Below, one piece after another: positions 1,343 through 64,000 of a DNA stretch of 64,000 bases; the first letter of the stretch is position 1; each line of letters starts with the position of its first letter. The position numbers and the translations under genes are program-made. The DNA is taken from NCBI GenBank assembly GCA_049523355.1, contig JBEKMY010000022.1, forward strand, positions 7,440 to 71,439, given 5' to 3'. The notes beneath the pieces are model-generated. The model was given only the letters and a program-made list of their open reading frames with translations, did not search any database and was not told where the DNA came from. The stretch comes from Smithella sp. GTDB lineage: Bacteria; Desulfobacterota; Syntrophia; Syntrophales; Smithellaceae.

Positions 1343-2753
1343 TACGGATAAGCTTTTTGCCGCATGAGTCTACATCAGATGCTATAAAATTTCTTTTCAG
1401 CAGGGACTCATAATAGTAATTTGAAACGGATAGTGCCCGCACTGCCTGTTCCGCTGTTTCGAATATCGGGATATGGTGCTTGGCGCGAATGGCAATGGAC
1501 TTGGCTATAGCGTTTGGTGTGTAGACGGCCGCTGGTTTATCGTAATGCTTGCAAATCTTCATCAGTTCCAGGAGAGTATCGATCACGAAAGGTTGCCAGA
1601 CACTCAGAAGGGGCAAAAGGCCGTCTACCTCGTCCGCGGAAAGAAGGATCTCGAAGATATCAAGATATGTCTGCGGCGGAGCTGGACCGATATCCACGGG
1701 GTTTTTAACATTAAAGACCTGTCCGGCTTTTTTCAACTTCTCCTGTGTCTGCGAGGATAGGCGTACCACCTGCAAACCCGCTTCCACCAGCAGGTCCGCA
1801 CTGATGCTGCCGAATGCCCCGGAATTTGTAAACATGGCAATCCGCTTTCCTTTCAAAAGAGGCATTTCCGTGAACATCTTGGGAAGAGAATGGAGTTCAT
1901 CGATTGATTTAAGACGGATGATCCCCGCCTGTTTGCAGGCGCTCTCGAAGATACAATCATTGTTGGCCATCCCAGCCGTATGAGACATGGCGGCCATGGC
2001 ACCCTCCGTGGTTCGGCCCACCTTGTAGATCATGATCGGCTTGCGCGATTTTTTGGCGGCTTCCATTAGTTTGCGGCCATTAGCCACATTTTCCAGATAT
2101 ATGCCAATGACTTCCGTCTCGTCGTGTTGAAAATAATCGATGAGATCTGCCTCATCCACATCGCACTTATTGCCGATACTGACAACTTTGTTCACACCGA
2201 CGAGGTCGTAATAAAGTGACTCCATGACCAGTACAGCAATGCCGCCACTCTGGATGATATAGGAAATAGTGCCCGGGGCCTCAAAAATCTGGTTCATTTC
2301 GACCAGGCTTGGGTTGACGCCGTAGAAACAGCAGAATTTTTTGCGGGTGTCCAATGTCCCCAGGCAATTCGGCCCCATTATACGGATTCCATTAGCCCTG
2401 GCGACATCGTCGATCTCGCACTGCATTGCCTCACCTTCTTGACCGCCTTCGGAAAAACCGGCGCTCTCGATGATTATCCGTTTGATTCCTTTGCGGGCGC
2501 AATCCTTGATAATGCCGGGAACGTTTTTTGCGGCTACGATGATTACCGCAAGATCGGGTGTTTCCGGGAGATCAATCAATGATGAATATCCCGGGTAGCC
2601 GTTCACTGCTTCCCCTTTTGAATTCAACGCGTATACGGCTCCCGTATACTGGAGATAATCCTTCAGCATGATGCAGATCGTGGCTCCCAGGTTGAAGGGG
2701 GTATTTGAGGCGCCGATGACAACAACTGATTTTGGATCGAAAAATGTTTCCAT
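1320..2753 (-). CDS. CoA-binding / ADP-forming acyl-CoA synthetase alpha-type protein
   Basis: N-terminal PKSVVVIGAS CoA-binding Rossmann signature, followed by a succinyl-CoA-ligase-like flavodoxin domain (IMGPNCLG, SGG). 477 aa. Confidence 0.8.
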   Translation of the reverse strand: METFFDPKSVVVIGASNTPFNLGATICIMLKDYLQYTGAVYALNSKGEAVNGYPGYSSLIDLPETPDLAVIIVAAKNVPGIIKDCARKGIKRIIIESAGFSEGGQEGEAMQCEIDDVARANGIRIMGPNCLGTLDTRKKFCCFYGVNPSLVEMNQIFEAPGTISYIIQSGGIAVLVMESLYYDLVGVNKVVSIGNKCDVDEADLIDYFQHDETEVIGIYLENVANGRKLMEAAKKSRKPIMIYKVGRTTEGAMAAMSHTAGMANNDCIFESACKQAGIIRLKSIDELHSLPKMFTEMPLLKGKRIAMFTNSGAFGSISADLLVEAGLQVVRLSSQTQEKLKKAGQVFNVKNPVDIGPAPPQTYLDIFEILLSADEVDGLLPLLSVWQPFVIDTLLELMKICKHYDKPAAVYTPNAIAKSIAIRAKHHIPIFETAEQAVRALSVSNYYYESLLKRNFIASDVDSCGKKLIRNEENVAS

Positions 2754-3133
2754 GTGCTGCTCACTTTTGATAAGATTTTTAAAACGTTTTTAAGTAGTCA
2801 AATCATTCAACCTTTGTCAAGAAAGAAAAATTAGTATTTCCTGACGAGGAATCATTTTTCTATTATAATTCCGGCAGTTATGATGTAATAATAAATACAT
2901 TGAATTCGTAAGCGGGTAAACACCCTGGCTTTAGAGTCAGCAAGCTATTATTGAATCATATAATACTTAAGAACCGAAGCTCTTCGCGACTTGCCGCGGT
3001 GAGCTTCAACAAGCAGAAGGCAACCTCAAAATTTTCTTGACCAGTATGTTCATTGTTTATATATACGCCAATCCCATGTAAGGAAGCCCTCTGCTTGACG
3101 CAAGACAAGAATAAATTCAAACAATCTGCTCGA

Positions 3134-3598
3134 ATGGCCCGTGCGAAAGCCTGCGGCCGCCGCACGCAGGTGCGCGAGTCGGGTATCCACGGTAAGGGCA
3201 TCTACGCCATCCGTCCCATCAAGGCCGGCAATAGAGTGCTGGAGTATAAGGGTAAGATCATTACATGGCGGAAGGCTCAGGCTCTCCACCCCCATGATCC
3301 CAGCCAACCCAACCACACCTTCTATTTCCACCTGGACGACGGGCACGTCATCGATGCCAAACAAGGTGGCAATACCGCCAAATGGATCAATCACTCCTGC
3401 GAACCCAATCTGGAAGCCGAACAGGATGGCATGCGCGTTTTTCTTAAAGCCCTGCGCGACATCAAAGTCGGTGAAGAGCTATTTTACGATTATGGTCTGA
3501 TCATCGATGGCCGGATAACACAAAAGCTCAAGAAGGAACATGCTTGCCTGTGCAATGCGCCCAATTGCCGCGGCACGATGTTAGCCTATAAAGGATAA
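3134..3598 (+). CDS. SET domain protein (putative protein-lysine N-methyltransferase)
   Basis: GIHGKGIYA, NHSCEPNL and ELFYDYG SET motifs, plus the post-SET cysteine cluster CLCNAPNCRG. Start chosen at MARAK; the upstream ATG at 3053 is possible. Confidence 0.8.
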   Translation: MARAKACGRRTQVRESGIHGKGIYAIRPIKAGNRVLEYKGKIITWRKAQALHPHDPSQPNHTFYFHLDDGHVIDAKQGGNTAKWINHSCEPNLEAEQDGMRVFLKALRDIKVGEELFYDYGLIIDGRITQKLKKEHACLCNAPNCRGTMLAYKG

Positions 3599-3714
3599 CA
3601 ACAGTTATCATACCGTTTCGAAATGCTATCCGTTCACAGTACTTATTTAATTTAATCCGGAATTACATCAATCTCATCAAATGCCGTGAATATAATCCGT
3701 TTTTAAAATTTCTC

Positions 3715-19942: not shown

Positions 19943-20316
19943 GGAGAAGATCAGATGATCGTCGGCAGAATTTATCTGCCGGAGGAAAGTCCGAGCTCCA
20001 CAGGGCAGGATGGTCGCTAACGGCGACTGGGGGTAACCCTAAGGAAAGTGCCACAGAAAATATACCGCCCGGAGCGAAAGTTCAGGGTAAGGGTGAAAAG
20101 GCGAGGTAAGAGCTCACCGCTTTTCCGGTGACGGAAAAGGCATGGTAAACCCCATCCGGAGCAAGACCAAATAGGAGAACGTTTAAGGGCTGCCCGCCTG
20201 ATGTTCTCGGGTAGTGTCGCTAGAGGCAGCAGGCAACTGCTGTCCCAGATGAATGATCATCGCCGCGTAAAGGGTGACCGAAACGCGGAACAGGACTCGG
20301 CTTATGATCTTCTCCC
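19943..20316 (+). ncRNA. rnpB: RNase P RNA, bacterial type A
   Basis: GAGGAAAGTCCGAGCTCCACAGGGCAG, GTGCCACAGAAA and ACAGGACTCGGCTTATGATC universal blocks. The P1 helix closes ggagaagatc (19943-) with gatcttctcc (-20315). Confidence 0.9.
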
Positions 20317-20340
20317 GTGCCTGTTTATACCGCTTCTAAA

Positions 20341-59777: not shown

Positions 59778-60425
59778 TTATTGGTATTGGTCGAGGAATT
59801 TGTGCAAAGCGGTCTTTAACCAGGCAAAAGATTCCTGTTTGGTTACAACAAATAGATATCCGCCGATGTTTTTTTCATTAAACTCGAACACTGTCCTTAA
59901 AACAATGGCTACGTTGCCAGGAGCAGTCAGGCTGGCGGATACTATATCGCGACTACTTTTTTCAACGACAACGCGTGGTGGTGAATAAGTAGAAAAATCA
60001 CCTAAAAGTTCAGAAATTTTTCCAATACATGCTCCGATCAGGATGTTGCCAATTTCCAGAAATGTTTCTTTCTCCATCTCATTAGCAGGATCTGAGAGAA
60101 ACAATTCATCTCCACTGCCCAGTATGGAAGATATTCTTTTTCCTGATCCGGACGGGAAAAACAAATAAGCGTTACCCTTAAATTTACCCCAGAAACTTTG
60201 TTCCACAACGGATACTTTATCGCAGTCTTTTAGTTCACTGTTAATATATACTGGAAGCTCAGAGGCTTGAAGCAGTATGACATCGGGAGGACTCAGGAGA
60301 ACAAAAATATCTATGAATTCTGCGAGATCCGCAGCGGCACGGCCAAAAGCGATATTCATGATTTCCTGCATGAGATCAGTTTCTTCGCTAGTAATCATCG
60401 CATTGGTGCTATCATTTATCGGCAT
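59778..60425 (-). CDS. cheC: CheC-type CheY-P phosphatase
   Basis: Two copies of the E-x2-N-x22-P active-site motif (QEIMN...LLSPP and LEIGN...TYSPP). Confidence 0.8.
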   Translation of the reverse strand: MPINDSTNAMITSEETDLMQEIMNIAFGRAAADLAEFIDIFVLLSPPDVILLQASELPVYINSELKDCDKVSVVEQSFWGKFKGNAYLFFPSGSGKRISSILGSGDELFLSDPANEMEKETFLEIGNILIGACIGKISELLGDFSTYSPPRVVVEKSSRDIVSASLTAPGNVAIVLRTVFEFNEKNIGGYLFVVTKQESFAWLKTALHKFLDQYQ

Positions 60426-60428
60426 AAT

Positions 60429-60809
60429 TTATCCACGCTCCGCCAGGGCATTGTCTGCTTCTTTGATGGCCGCTGTTATTGATTCTTTTGCCGGTGGCTT
60501 TTTTAATACCGAAAATGCGCCTAAATCATGTGCTTTTGCAATTGCTTTGATTTGAACATCCGCAGTACAAATTATAACAATTGCTTTTGGATCGACTTTT
60601 AAAATTTCTTCCAGGGCCTGAAAACCATCCATGACAGGCATCGTTAAATCCATGAAAGTCAGATCCGGTTTAATTTCCTTGAATTTTTCCACACCGCTTT
60701 TACCATCGGGAGCATCAAACATTTCGTAATCATTATCTTTAGGTATACAGCTCTTCATTATTTTTACAGATATGACAGAATCGTCAACAATTAATATTTT
60801 TTTAATCAT
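60429..60809 (-). CDS. cheY: CheY-like single-domain response regulator
   Basis: KILIVDDS...DLTMPVMDG...K receiver motifs. Start at MIKKIL with a GGAGAGG RBS. Confidence 0.88.
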   Translation of the reverse strand: MIKKILIVDDSVISVKIMKSCIPKDNDYEMFDAPDGKSGVEKFKEIKPDLTFMDLTMPVMDGFQALEEILKVDPKAIVIICTADVQIKAIAKAHDLGAFSVLKKPPAKESITAAIKEADNALAERG

Positions 60810-60852
60810 AAAAACCTCTCCCCATAGCGGTATGTTTTCCGGACAATTTCTT

Positions 60853-61265
60853 TCAGAACCGTTCCGCACACAGTGTGCTCTTTGTATAGGAGTTTCTGTT
60901 AATAAGCAACAGAAATTTTATCTTCCGTAACGCGTTAAAAAGTTTTGTTTGCGGTGATTTTTTCAATGTCTCGGCAATTTGTTATAAAATAAAATCGTCA
61001 CATTGATGGCCATGAGTATCATTTACTTTTTTGAAATAATCAATGTCGAACATGATCATGCCAAGCGGCTATTGGTAATGTTTGTTTCTTTCAATTTCTT
61101 CTTTTTGGGCGAATATACAGATTGCAACCTTTACGTGCTTCGGTGAGAGCATCTTTCCTGTTCATCTTAATAAGATTTGCCGGAAGTTAACTGCTCCTGT
61201 AGCTTCATAAATGGCGATAAGAATGTATTCAATGAAGCCATTTTCACTTAACACTAAAGCGTGTC
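60853..61265 (-). pseudogene. decayed GGDEF (diguanylate cyclase) gene remnant
   Basis: A single minus-strand frame reads ...[51 protein letters not shown]...[15 protein letters not shown]. The DxDxFKxxNDxxGH block is intact. There are three in-frame stops, RKIKF stands where GGDEF is expected, and the domain is truncated before cheY. Confidence 0.55.
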
Positions 61266-61467
61266 GTAAAAATCATCTAATTTCTATTATTTGCCTTGTA
61301 ATTTAAATAACTTTTATAAATATTTTAATATAGAAATATTTTGCAGTCAATATTTTAAAAAATGATTGGTCGTATTTATTGAATGCGCAACTTATTTTTT
61401 ATCAATATTAATAAGTTGGCAGCGTATAGTCAATATATTATATCCTGATTCGTATGTATATTATCCC

Positions 61468-61496
61468 TTGACTTTGGCGATATATTTTGGTGATAT
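61468..61496 (+). promoter_or_regulatory. sigma-70-type promoter for the riboswitch-cheA transcript
   Basis: TTGACT, 17 nt (ending TGg), TGATAT. About 15 nt upstream of the aptamer. Confidence 0.45.
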
Positions 61497-61512
61497 ATTA
61501 ATGTGTATGAAA

Positions 61513-61616
61513 AGTTTCAAATTGATCAAGGCAAACCGCCTGAAAAGACGGGACGCAAAGTCACTGACCTAAGTCTTCGTGTTGGGGGATATGGTGGCAG
61601 GACTGCCGTGTAAACT
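61513..61616 (+). promoter_or_regulatory. GEMM-I (c-di-GMP-I class) riboswitch aptamer candidate
   Basis: AAGGCAAACC-gccu-GAAA-agac-GGGACGCAAAG matches the class core. A GAAA tetraloop hairpin is paired with a canonical 11-nt receptor, CCUAAG (61568-73) ... UAUGG (61590-94), inside a long second helix (61560-61603). Confidence 0.7.
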
Positions 61617-61744
61617 CACAGTAGTCAATGACCCTGCCATGATATCAAGTATAACAATTTAAAAAAATTGATTGACTATATATCGAATAATTTCTTAACT
61701 TGCGGCGTTCGATAGAATAATATTTGAGTGGAAAAAGATAAAAA

Positions 61745-63763
61745 ATGGACCTAAATCATCTGGCTATATCGTTGATCGAGCTCGATCCGGAAAACATTTC
61801 AGATTTGGACGTATTTAAAAAAAGCCTGGTTCTTGCCCAAAAAAAGGCCAGGGGAAAAGTTAAAGATATTTTGGGACAGGCTTGTGCCGAGATAGAGTCA
61901 TGGTCGGGCTATGACCTGGAATCGCGCCGGGCGGGGATAGTTCGTTTGGGAGAATTATTGGAGCAGGCAATGGAATTTGGCGTGGAAAATTCCTCTGGCG
62001 CAAAACCAAAAAACCCCAAGGCCGTTTTGCCGGAAAAAATGAAATCGCTTAAATTTACTCTATCTGACGAGTTTGATGCGGATCTGTTAAATGAGTTTAT
62101 TGTTGAAAGCATGGAATGCTCTAACATGGCCGAGTCGGCCATTTTGGACTGGGAAAAGGATCCGAACAACCAGGAATTACTGAATACTATATTTAGGGGT
62201 TTCCATACCATCAAAGGAACCTCTTCCTTCATTAATCTGGACTGCGTTAAGGACGTGGCTCACAAAGCGGAATCTATGCTGGTTCGAGTCAGGGATGGTC
62301 AGGAGAGTTTTACAAGAGGCCATGCCGATTTGTCTCTTAAATCGTTAGACATGACCAAGAGCATTTTGGAACGGATGAAAACATCAGGTCCTGGTCAGCA
62401 AATAGAACTGCCTTTGGGCTATGAAGAACTGCTGGATGCCTTAAAGAATTTTATCTCCGGCACCCGGGATTCACACGTCAATGATCCGTCATCTGAGCCT
62501 GCTGTCAAGCCCGAACCCAGGGAAAAGCTTGCCCGGAAAGATGAAGAAGCTTCTGCAGATCAGTTCCCGGCTGCAAGCTCAGCTCCGGACCAGATAGTTG
62601 AGTCCACCGTCAGGGTCAAGATTGACCGGCTGGATAAGCTGTTGGATACGGTGGGCGAACTGGTGATCGCCCAGACCATGGTGGGACAGGATGAACTAAT
62701 CGTAAGCGGAAAACATCGCGAACTTAGTAAAAAAATATCCCATGCCGGAAAGATAGTGCGCGAACTTCAGGATCTGAGCATGATCCTTCGTATGGTTCCC
62801 CTGAAGGGCACCTTCCAGAAAATGGCCCGGCTGGCCCGCGATCTTTCCCAGAAAAATGGTAAAAGGGTAAATTTCACTGCTGAAGGTGAGGATATTGAGA
62901 TCGACCGTAACATGGTTGACATGGTTGCCGATCCGCTGATCCATCTTATTCGGAATGCTGTTGACCACGGTATTGAAACGCCGGAGGAACGCCGCCGACT
63001 CGGGAAATCCGAGGATGCCTTGATTTGTTTGACAGCCGGTCATGTTGAAGGCAGCATTATGCTGACAGTCTGGGATGATGGCAGAGGACTGAGCCGCCAG
63101 AAGATAGTGGACAAGGCCATATCTCGGGGCCTGATAGATTCGGCTGAACGGATGACTGACCAGGAGGTTTGGCAAATGATATTCCAGCCGGGCTTTTCCA
63201 CCGCGGAACAAGTGACAGAGGTCTCTGGCCGGGGAGTGGGGTTGGATGTGGTATGCCAGGCAGTAGATGCCCTGCGGGGCCGGATAGAGGTTCAAAGTTC
63301 GGAAGGTCAGGGCTGCGCCTTTATTATGAGAATGCCCCTGACCATGGCTATTACAGACGGAATGGTGGTTAGAGTGGGATCTCAAAGATACATCCTGCCT
63401 ATCGCCAACATCCAAAAAGCGGTAAGGCCGGTTGAGACAGATATCCACACGGTGAACCAAAGAGCCGAAATGCTTGACTTCAGGGGGGAGCTGTTGCCGG
63501 TTTTCAGGTTACACCGGCTTTTTGATATAACGGACGCTCAAACCGAACTTACTTTGGGGCTGTTGGTGGTGATAGGTGAGGGACAGCAGCGTTGTGCTCT
63601 TTTTGTAGACGATCTTTTATCCCAGACCCAGGTGGTAACCAAATTACTGGGCAAGGGGATCGACAAAGTACAGGGAGTGGCCGGAGGAGCCATTATGAGT
63701 GATGGTACGGTAGGTCTAATTCTGGACACTGCCGGAATAGTTAATATTGCCCGCAGCGATTAA
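61745..63763 (+). CDS. cheA: chemotaxis histidine kinase CheA
   Basis: Hpt FRGFHTIKGTSSF, dimerisation domain, HATPase (HLIRNAVDHGIE, DDGRGL, GRGVGLDVV), C-terminal CheW-like domain. Confidence 0.92.
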   Translation: MDLNHLAISLIELDPENISDLDVFKKSLVLAQKKARGKVKDILGQACAEIESWSGYDLESRRAGIVRLGELLEQAMEFGVENSSGAKPKNPKAVLPEKMKSLKFTLSDEFDADLLNEFIVESMECSNMAESAILDWEKDPNNQELLNTIFRGFHTIKGTSSFINLDCVKDVAHKAESMLVRVRDGQESFTRGHADLSLKSLDMTKSILERMKTSGPGQQIELPLGYEELLDALKNFISGTRDSHVNDPSSEPAVKPEPREKLARKDEEASADQFPAASSAPDQIVESTVRVKIDRLDKLLDTVGELVIAQTMVGQDELIVSGKHRELSKKISHAGKIVRELQDLSMILRMVPLKGTFQKMARLARDLSQKNGKRVNFTAEGEDIEIDRNMVDMVADPLIHLIRNAVDHGIETPEERRRLGKSEDALICLTAGHVEGSIMLTVWDDGRGLSRQKIVDKAISRGLIDSAERMTDQEVWQMIFQPGFSTAEQVTEVSGRGVGLDVVCQAVDALRGRIEVQSSEGQGCAFIMRMPLTMAITDGMVVRVGSQRYILPIANIQKAVRPVETDIHTVNQRAEMLDFRGELLPVFRLHRLFDITDAQTELTLGLLVVIGEGQQRCALFVDDLLSQTQVVTKLLGKGIDKVQGVAGGAIMSDGTVGLILDTAGIVNIARSD

Positions 63764-63803: not shown

Positions 63804-64000
63804 ATGAAAAACGCAAGCGCGGTTAATAAAAATCAGTCCGAGAGGGTTGATTCCCGCGCCGGTAAGTACCTGACCTTTTTTCTTTCCAGTGAGGAATACG
63901 GGGTGGAGATATTAAAGGTTCAGGAGATTATCGGCCGGATGCCGATCACACCTGTTCCGCTGACATCCAAGTATATCCGGGGGGTCATCAATCTGCGGGG
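63804..64000 (+). CDS. cheW: CheW-like coupling protein (3' end outside window)
   Basis: AGGAGG RBS. YLTFFLSSEEYGVEILKVQEIIGRMPITPVP...IRGVINLRG is a typical CheW N-terminus. Confidence 0.85.
   Translation, partial: MKNASAVNKNQSERVDSRAGKYLTFFLSSEEYGVEILKVQEIIGRMPITPVPLTSKYIRGVINLR

Follow-up and report, generated by a model that had tools for sequence, protein, structure and literature searches.

Does the untranslated 5' leader (5'UTR) of a chemosensory operon in Smithella carry a c-di-GMP riboswitch and, if it does, by which RNA structure, in which direction and for which ligand would it work? Smithella is an uncultivated-type syntroph of peat and digester communities, and little is known of its signalling. 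The leader in question lies in a window of 64,000 nucleotides, the whole stretch of DNA that was analyzed; an earlier note, made from the sequence alone, had described it as a GEMM-I (c-di-GMP-I class) leader placed in front of cheA and cheW. The positions of the features are reported in Table 1.

Table 1. Features of the cheA leader and of its neighbourhood, in window coordinates.
Feature	Position	Strand	Basis
CheC/CheX phosphatase, divergent	59778-60425	-	Pfam
CheY-like receiver, divergent	60429-60869	-	Pfam
Sigma-70-like promoter: TTGACT (61468-61473), 17-nt spacer, TGATAT (61491-61496)	61468-61496	+	sequence
Module common with the GEMM-I leaders of pilD-type genes: aptamer and about 65 nt downstream	61517-61674	+	blastn
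c-di-GMP-I (GEMM-I) aptamer, full length	61520-61610	+	RF01051 alignment
Specificity position (equivalent of Vc2 G20): G	61530	+	model alignment; consensus G immediately 5' of the junction pairs G-C/C-G
First hairpin, CCGCCU-GAAA-AGACGG	61536-61551	+	cmscan alignment, pair counts; one C.A mismatch, 61539/61548
A equivalent to Vc2 A47, first A of the AAA linker (61557-61559)	61557	+	cmscan alignment
Second helix (P2) with 11-nt tetraloop receptor	61559-61604	+	cmscan alignment
Alternative hairpin, 59 nt, mutually exclusive with P2	61588-61646	+	minimum-free-energy fold, duplex energy, pair counts
C equivalent to Vc2 C92, first C of the GCC after P2	61606	+	alignment to the consensus gCC only; approximate
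Proximal cheA leader, with purine-rich ribosome-binding region at about 61726-61738	61664-61744	+	blastn against riboswitch-less cheA loci
cheA, 672 aa	61745-63763	+	Pfam Hpt, H-kinase_dim, HATPase_c, CheW
cheW, cut by the window end	63804-64000	+	Pfam CheW, 43.8 bits

When scanned by cmscan, the leader matches the Rfam model of the c-di-GMP-I/GEMM-I aptamer (RF01051) at 61520-61610 on the plus strand, with a score of 72.9 bits, about double the gathering score of 35, and E = 2.2e-12 over the whole 64-kb window; all model positions (1-87 of 87) are covered. The covariance-model check that had been proposed for the element is thereby cleared and, together with the tetraloop and receptor and with the Pfam domains of CheA and then CheW downstream, the match bears out the presence of a GEMM-I-class leader before cheA-cheW. 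No other notable element emerged from a permissive Rfam scan of 60400-62000; elsewhere in the window, a full-length bacterial class A RNase P RNA is located at 19943-20319 (+, 334 bits).

The motifs on which the earlier note had relied are found in the sequence: the core AAGGCAAACC-GCCU-GAAA-AGAC-GGGACGCAAAG is present at 61528-61560, its GAAA tetraloop at 61542-61545, and the receptor consists of CCUAAG (61568-61573) and UAUGG (61590-61594), as claimed. In GEMM RNAs, characteristically, a GNRA tetraloop caps the first hairpin and a near-invariant AAA linker lies between the hairpins (PMC1950547). Here the GNRA-capped first hairpin is joined by AAA to the second one, which contains, in its canonical 11-nt form, the receptor accompanying the GAAA loop. 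In Vc2 numbering, the ligand-contacting residues G20, A47 and C92 correspond, by the model alignment, to G61530, A61557 and C61606, the last one approximately. In GEMM-I aptamers, G20 reads one guanine of the ligand, while C92 pairs with the other (PMC6140456, PMC5888326), as the Watson-Crick partner of G-beta (PMC6140456); the backbone phosphate of A47 is hydrogen-bonded to the 2'-hydroxyl of G-alpha (PMC5888326). The arrangement is that of a 5' regulatory element, with promoter (61468-61496), aptamer and cheA ATG (61745) following each other on the same strand, given a transcription start placed between the first two; 135 nt separate the 3' end of the aptamer from cheA. By all these sequence and structure criteria the element belongs to RF01051, and there is very little doubt that it is a c-di-GMP-I aptamer. 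An additional closing helix, formed by the aptamer flanks (AGUUU at 61513-17 with AAACU at 61612-16), was, on judgement by eye, left unassigned, as its register varies among relatives.

The promoter, present where it had been claimed, would start transcription near 61503-61505. It is conserved at 97% identity in five relatives (L044, L109, L001, L002, L003) and at 90% in L005, and aligns with the TTGACA box of cheA loci devoid of the riboswitch. A consensus promoter scan omits it, as the scan accepts a -10 hexamer only if its second base is A. Two further candidates within the leader were discarded: a second promoter, starting with TTGACT at 61672-61677, is not kept in L001 and other relatives, and a short upstream ORF from the AUG at 61639 lacks its start codon in L002, L003, L005 and L116. 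In the L005 operon, cheW is followed by an MCP gene and then by cheR.

Other sequences of the region deserve a description. Between cheY and the riboswitch lies the remnant of a GGDEF (diguanylate-cyclase) gene (60949-61104, -), matching Pfam with 45 bits at profile positions 20-71 of 161 and interrupted by in-frame stops. The site listed as its counterpart in L005 is 2798-3052 (-); in L004, a sister locus devoid of the riboswitch, the same position is occupied by an intact ORF of 300 aa (2744-3643, -) that contains a GGDEF motif, fragments are found in L006, L007 and L024, and nothing in more distant Smithella loci. An earlier link of the che cluster to c-di-GMP, at the level of a protein, may therefore have existed. 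The region between the two che promoters, which diverge, contains an inverted repeat formed by CAACTTATT and AATAAGTTG, 13 nt apart (61388-61396 and 61410-61418); since riboswitch-less L007 has it too, the repeat may serve as the operator of a DNA-binding regulator. Finally, AGTCAATAT is repeated at 61345-61353 and 61428-61436: read on the minus strand, each copy supplies the -35 box, TTGACT, of a promoter-like site directed toward cheY-cheC/X (10/12 matches for one site, 9/12 for the other), and many Smithella loci have the motif upstream of cheA as well.

The ability of the aptamer to enter a different structure had been suggested on the basis of six bases, GGCAGG, within the 3' strand of P2, complementary to a downstream CCUGCC. 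The latter is located, as stated, at 61633-61638; GGCAGG is also present, but its position was off by one base (61596-61601, not 61597-61602). The 6-bp pairing is real, and constitutes the core of a 21-bp hairpin, in which 61588-92 pairs with 61642-46, 61594-61601 with 61633-40, 61602-06 with 61621-25 and 61608-10 with 61617-19. This hairpin, instead of P2, is found in the unconstrained fold of 61505-61760. The duplex between the 3' half of the aptamer and the downstream strand reaches -25.1 kcal/mol, against -13.2 +/- 2.4 for shuffled downstream sequences (z = -5.0), and its start offset, +23/24, is shared by close relatives; the pairing is weak in L008 and L116, the most diverged copies. In nine cheA-type leaders, i.e. 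leaders with the element upstream of cheA, 92.6% of the hairpin cells are paired, and sliding the partner strand lowers this share to 23-64%. Compensatory changes occur in two pairs, including a G-C to A-U change in L005, and the covariation score is reached by 12 of 500 shuffles: the support that covariation lends to the hairpin may be rated as moderate, not strong. Two other approaches were of little use: RNAalifold, run on a MAFFT alignment of 61 leaders, returned a partial aptamer only, with GGC and GCC mis-paired, and was dropped for the platform; column mutual information was dominated by clade structure, with only columns 118-138 and 147-152 resembling real pairs.

The competitor thus found shares bases with the 3' side of P2, an overlap that is usual in this family (PMC1950547). 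By secondary-structure energy alone, the alternative fold is favoured, without ligand, by about 15-16 kcal/mol. When folding is followed on the growing transcript, P2 is the earlier structure to appear, and gives way only after transcription has reached about 61638-61646; this fits a kinetically controlled switch, with a decision window of 30-40 nt.

The distribution of the element among relatives is uneven. CheA orthologues were collected from 26 reference genomes, all from Smithella or Syntrophaceae (63-95% identity): in Rfam scans, only five of the 26 loci have the aptamer, placed about 225 nt upstream of cheA, with RF01051 scores of 73.6 (L001), 71 (L003), 69.5 (L002), 56.1 (L005) and 38.5 bits (L008), and is missing from the other 21. 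Five further cheA-type copies (L044, L105, L109, L116, L117) came from a metagenome scan. There, the aptamer-core pattern identifies 118 loci, and only these five, plus the truncated L124, have cheA downstream. In about 85 of the metagenomic loci, a near-identical aptamer precedes by 95-110 nt a prepilin-peptidase (pilD-type) gene (Peptidase A24 N-terminal domain); the remaining loci include pseudopilin or secreted-protein genes downstream. In L081 (298-657, -) and L107 (3764-4123, +), three tandem GEMM-I cores of the same aptamer subtype, about 165 nt apart, are located upstream of a signal-peptide protein; tandem arrangements had been reported in the first description of GEMM (PMC1950547).

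The similarity to these leaders is not limited to the aptamer. The L032 leader is 85% identical to the window over 141 nt (61528-61666) and, for about 25 other non-cheA leaders, blastn alignments proceed past the end of the aptamer (61610) up to 61664-61674. The hairpin that follows the aptamer in the metagenomic leaders (L027-L144) shows compensatory changes in 7 of its 12 pairs. By contrast, what riboswitch-less cheA loci have in common with the window is limited to the flank upstream, the TTGAC box and the final 55-80 nt that precede the ATG: when the leader is compared by blastn with the 26 orthologous loci, L007, L024, L006, L004, L013 and others match only 61664-61744, and their 5'UTR is about 100 nt long, versus about 245 nt where the element is present. 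Flanking DNA of the pilD-type loci gave no matches with the window and the Smithella loci; cheA-type and pilD-type copies are found in the same metagenomes.

These comparisons are most simply explained by a copying event, regarded as probable, in which one sublineage of Smithella received a pilD-type module in its cheA 5'UTR. The direction, from pilD to cheA, is suggested by three observations: the pilD type is far more numerous and diverse; the cheA type is confined to a small clade; and three cheA-type leaders (L003, L005, L116) retain the pilD-proximal motif AAGAUAGACUG(GA), with the former ribosome site decayed.

How the switch may reach the expression of the downstream genes was evaluated by looking for the common output devices. 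In agreement with the earlier note, the scan finds no intrinsic terminator on the plus strand; a U-tract, sought after both the aptamer fold and the alternative fold, is absent in either case, and no obvious terminator is seen in any of the metagenomic leaders. The sole terminator-like site of the region is on the minus strand, at 61536-61551, where the first hairpin of the aptamer, as its reverse complement, is followed by TTTGCCTT; it is probably incidental, since no gene on that strand reads into it. Accessibility of the ribosome site was calculated, for 11 cheA-type and 64 pilD-type leaders, as the probability that positions -15 to +4 are unpaired when the aptamer is locked or free: locking the aptamer produces no consistent shift in either set (35/64, p = 0.29, for the pilD type). 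In cheA leaders the site is mostly open in both predicted switch states. The released strand forms with the ribosome site a duplex no better than that of shuffled sequence. Occlusion of the ribosome site, lacking both a consistent shift and above-chance pairing, was therefore not retained; the suggestion of the earlier note, control of translation or of RNA stability, is neither supported nor refuted by these results.

The platform is left with a conserved hairpin competing for the 3' side of P2, no U-tract and no consistent effect on the ribosome site. As the module stayed conserved at about 70 nt from a foreign ribosome site after its apparent transplant, the output would be intrinsic to it, acting on transcript elongation or stability and not through Shine-Dalgarno masking. 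A broader reading may be offered tentatively, being on the doubtful side: aptamer and anti-aptamer hairpin would form a portable cassette, working with neither terminator nor ribosome-site occlusion (e.g. through Rho or a ribonuclease), which was copied from a pilD-type leader into the Smithella cheA 5'UTR and placed the chemosensory operon under pilus c-di-GMP control, possibly as the GGDEF gene decayed. If true, it would document riboswitch recruitment by duplication of a whole module.

It is likely, on the evidence described, that the 5'UTR of the Smithella cheA-cheW(-MCP-cheR) operon contains a functional c-di-GMP riboswitch, switching through the 61588-61646 hairpin. According to the proposed mechanism, transcription would begin from the TTGACT-17-TGATAT promoter, and the aptamer would be complete well before the competitor strand is made. 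Binding of c-di-GMP in the interval of about 30-40 nt that precedes 61633-61646 would keep the aptamer locked; with no ligand, its 3' half would refold with 61611-61646 into the 59-nt hairpin, and the binding pocket would be destroyed. Aptamer identity, the G at the specificity position, the competing hairpin with its conservation and the folding order are the observed or computed steps of this scheme, while the output is the part that we infer.

In the commonest GEMM design, the hairpin formed without ligand is the repressive element. The same may hold here, c-di-GMP raising the expression of the cheA operon together with that of the pilus genes: this direction is adopted with belief and doubt in equal measure, and both direction and effector (Rho, an RNase or other) are guesses. 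That there is no regulation, or some other outcome, is considered rather improbable. The opposite logic is possible, if unlikely: the ligand would free the C-rich, G-poor stretch 61611-61660, with recruitment of Rho or exposure of an RNase site, and c-di-GMP would lower cheA-operon expression, in line with the usual rule that high c-di-GMP means less motility. The absence of both terminator and ribosome-site pairing fits such a scheme, and a precedent exists in Cd1, by which c-di-GMP switches OFF the flagellar operon of C. difficile (PMC9262584). Base composition also appears to agree, as C exceeds G only in 61600-61660 (C/G 1.2-1.6, versus 0.2-0.9 on either side) and does so in 44 of 52 pilD-type platforms. 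This bias, however, is an automatic consequence of complementarity with the aptamer's 3' strand, which is rich in G; it is therefore not independent evidence, and was discarded as a sign of a Rho-loading site. Moreover, the freed stretch is short for such a site, and the same module precedes pilus genes, which elsewhere are switched on by c-di-GMP and cGAMP riboswitches.

Far less probable is that the module, once copied into the cheA leader, still folds but no longer controls expression. The absence of a recognisable output device would be explained, as would the decay of the pilD-proximal part of the module (CUGGA to CUGCA, CUGUA or CUAUA), the 21 of 26 orthologous loci without the element, and the erosion of L008 (38.5 bits), where G20 is replaced by A and one junction G-C pair is broken. 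Against this stands the conservation of the aptamer, far better than that of neutral sites over a CheA divergence of 15-25%. In L002, L003 and L005, its identity to the window is 92-95%, compared to 76-78% at the third-codon positions of cheA and 69-93% for the other segments of the leader, of which the aptamer is the best conserved; in L116, the figures are 89% for the aptamer and 64% for third-codon positions. Since its identity exceeds that of third-codon positions, the aptamer features the pattern of purifying selection. Pairing is maintained as well: over 61 related leaders 94.9% of aptamer cells are paired, with double changes in 4 of 22 pairs, and P2 reaches 97-98% in the cheA-type set. 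Within nine cheA-type leaders no covariation is observed in the aptamer, which hardly varies there. At one P2 pair, 61562/61601, the cheA type has C-G, while all pilD-type leaders have U-A or U-G, so that pairing has been kept through a double change; the compensatory change from U-A to C-G postdates the split of the two types. The alternative hairpin has been kept too.

For the preferred riboswitch reading, the predicted ligand is c-di-GMP, not 3',3'-cGAMP, because a G occupies the G20 position in the window and in every intact cheA-type relative. The spacing between G61530 and A61557, 27 nt, is the same as between G20 and A47 in Vc2. It is highly improbable that the aptamer senses cGAMP, or both dinucleotides, like the Geobacter GEMM-Ib RNAs. 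The host lineage is 'deltaproteobacterial', as is Geobacter, and bispecific natural GEMM-I variants exist (PMC6140456); an A, moreover, is found in the G20 column of two pilD-type relatives. Yet position 20 is an A in the GEMM-Ib RNAs that sense cGAMP, and cGAMP is discriminated against by Vc2 in its wild-type, G20 form (PMC6140456); at the corresponding site (A14 of Gs1761) the window has G61530. There is good confidence that the window element is functional and c-di-GMP-selective. The two relatives, L093 and L127, are pilD-type leaders with A for G at alignment column 25 (AAAAAGCAAACC), and represent candidate cGAMP-sensing or bispecific variants. In L056, the G20 column contains U, and the adjacent paired G (G21 equivalent) is replaced by A.

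As to chance resemblance or a scan artefact, a full-length match with E = 2.2e-12 over 64 kb, kept at the same position in relatives, makes it negligible.

Neither the RNA class nor its association with chemotaxis genes is new, as copies upstream of cheW, cheY, MCP and pilus genes were tabulated in 2007, when GEMM was first described (PMC1950547). The literature on c-di-GMP riboswitches and cheA yielded no paper describing a cheA-specific case: this is a small gap, and knowledge of the riboswitch class itself is left unchanged by the window element. What the element offers is a testable link, at the RNA level, between c-di-GMP and the expression of a CheA-CheW-MCP-CheR chemosensory operon in Smithella. 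Its chimeric-looking 5'UTR suggests a way in which riboswitch regulons may grow, by copying of modules between leaders, and the large set of related GEMM-I RNAs upstream of pilD, pseudopilin and cheA genes, with no canonical terminator or ribosome-site stem, provides material for the study of a non-standard output mechanism.

Vc2 of Vibrio cholerae, located upstream of VC1722 (tfoX-like), is the type member of RF01051. The window element resembles it in the GGCAAACC...GAAA...GGGACGCAAAG core, in the GAAA tetraloop with its 11-nt receptor, in G20 and in the equivalents of A47 and C92; it differs in organism and downstream gene, and in featuring a 59-nt hairpin that competes with P2, with no evident terminator or ribosome-site stem. 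Cd1, from the flgB operon of Clostridioides difficile, is likewise a class-I c-di-GMP aptamer leading a motility-related operon, and its control is kinetic, exerted during transcription; unlike the window element, however, this OFF switch uses a canonical intrinsic terminator (PMC9262584). The Geobacter GEMM-I/GEMM-Ib RNAs (pilM riboswitch, Gs1761) belong to a related bacterial group. They are associated with type IV pilus genes, and the stem that competes with their aptamer includes its 3' part, sequestering the ligand-pairing C (PMC9262584, PMC1950547); the pilM riboswitch is an ON switch with a true terminator (PMC9262584). Those RNAs have A20 and respond to cGAMP, and are ON switches because of a competitor that is a true terminator, whereas the window has G20 and no U-tract. 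Finally, the leaders of pilD-type and pseudopilin genes (L027-L144), from peat, bog and digester metagenomes, share with the window a near-identical core and the homologous 65 nt or so, among which is the strand complementary to the aptamer's 3' half. In them only about 20 nt separate the end of the module from the pilD start codon and the inner alternative hairpin, the one with compensatory changes in 7 of 12 pairs, is in another register, while in the window about 70 nt of cheA-specific leader are added.
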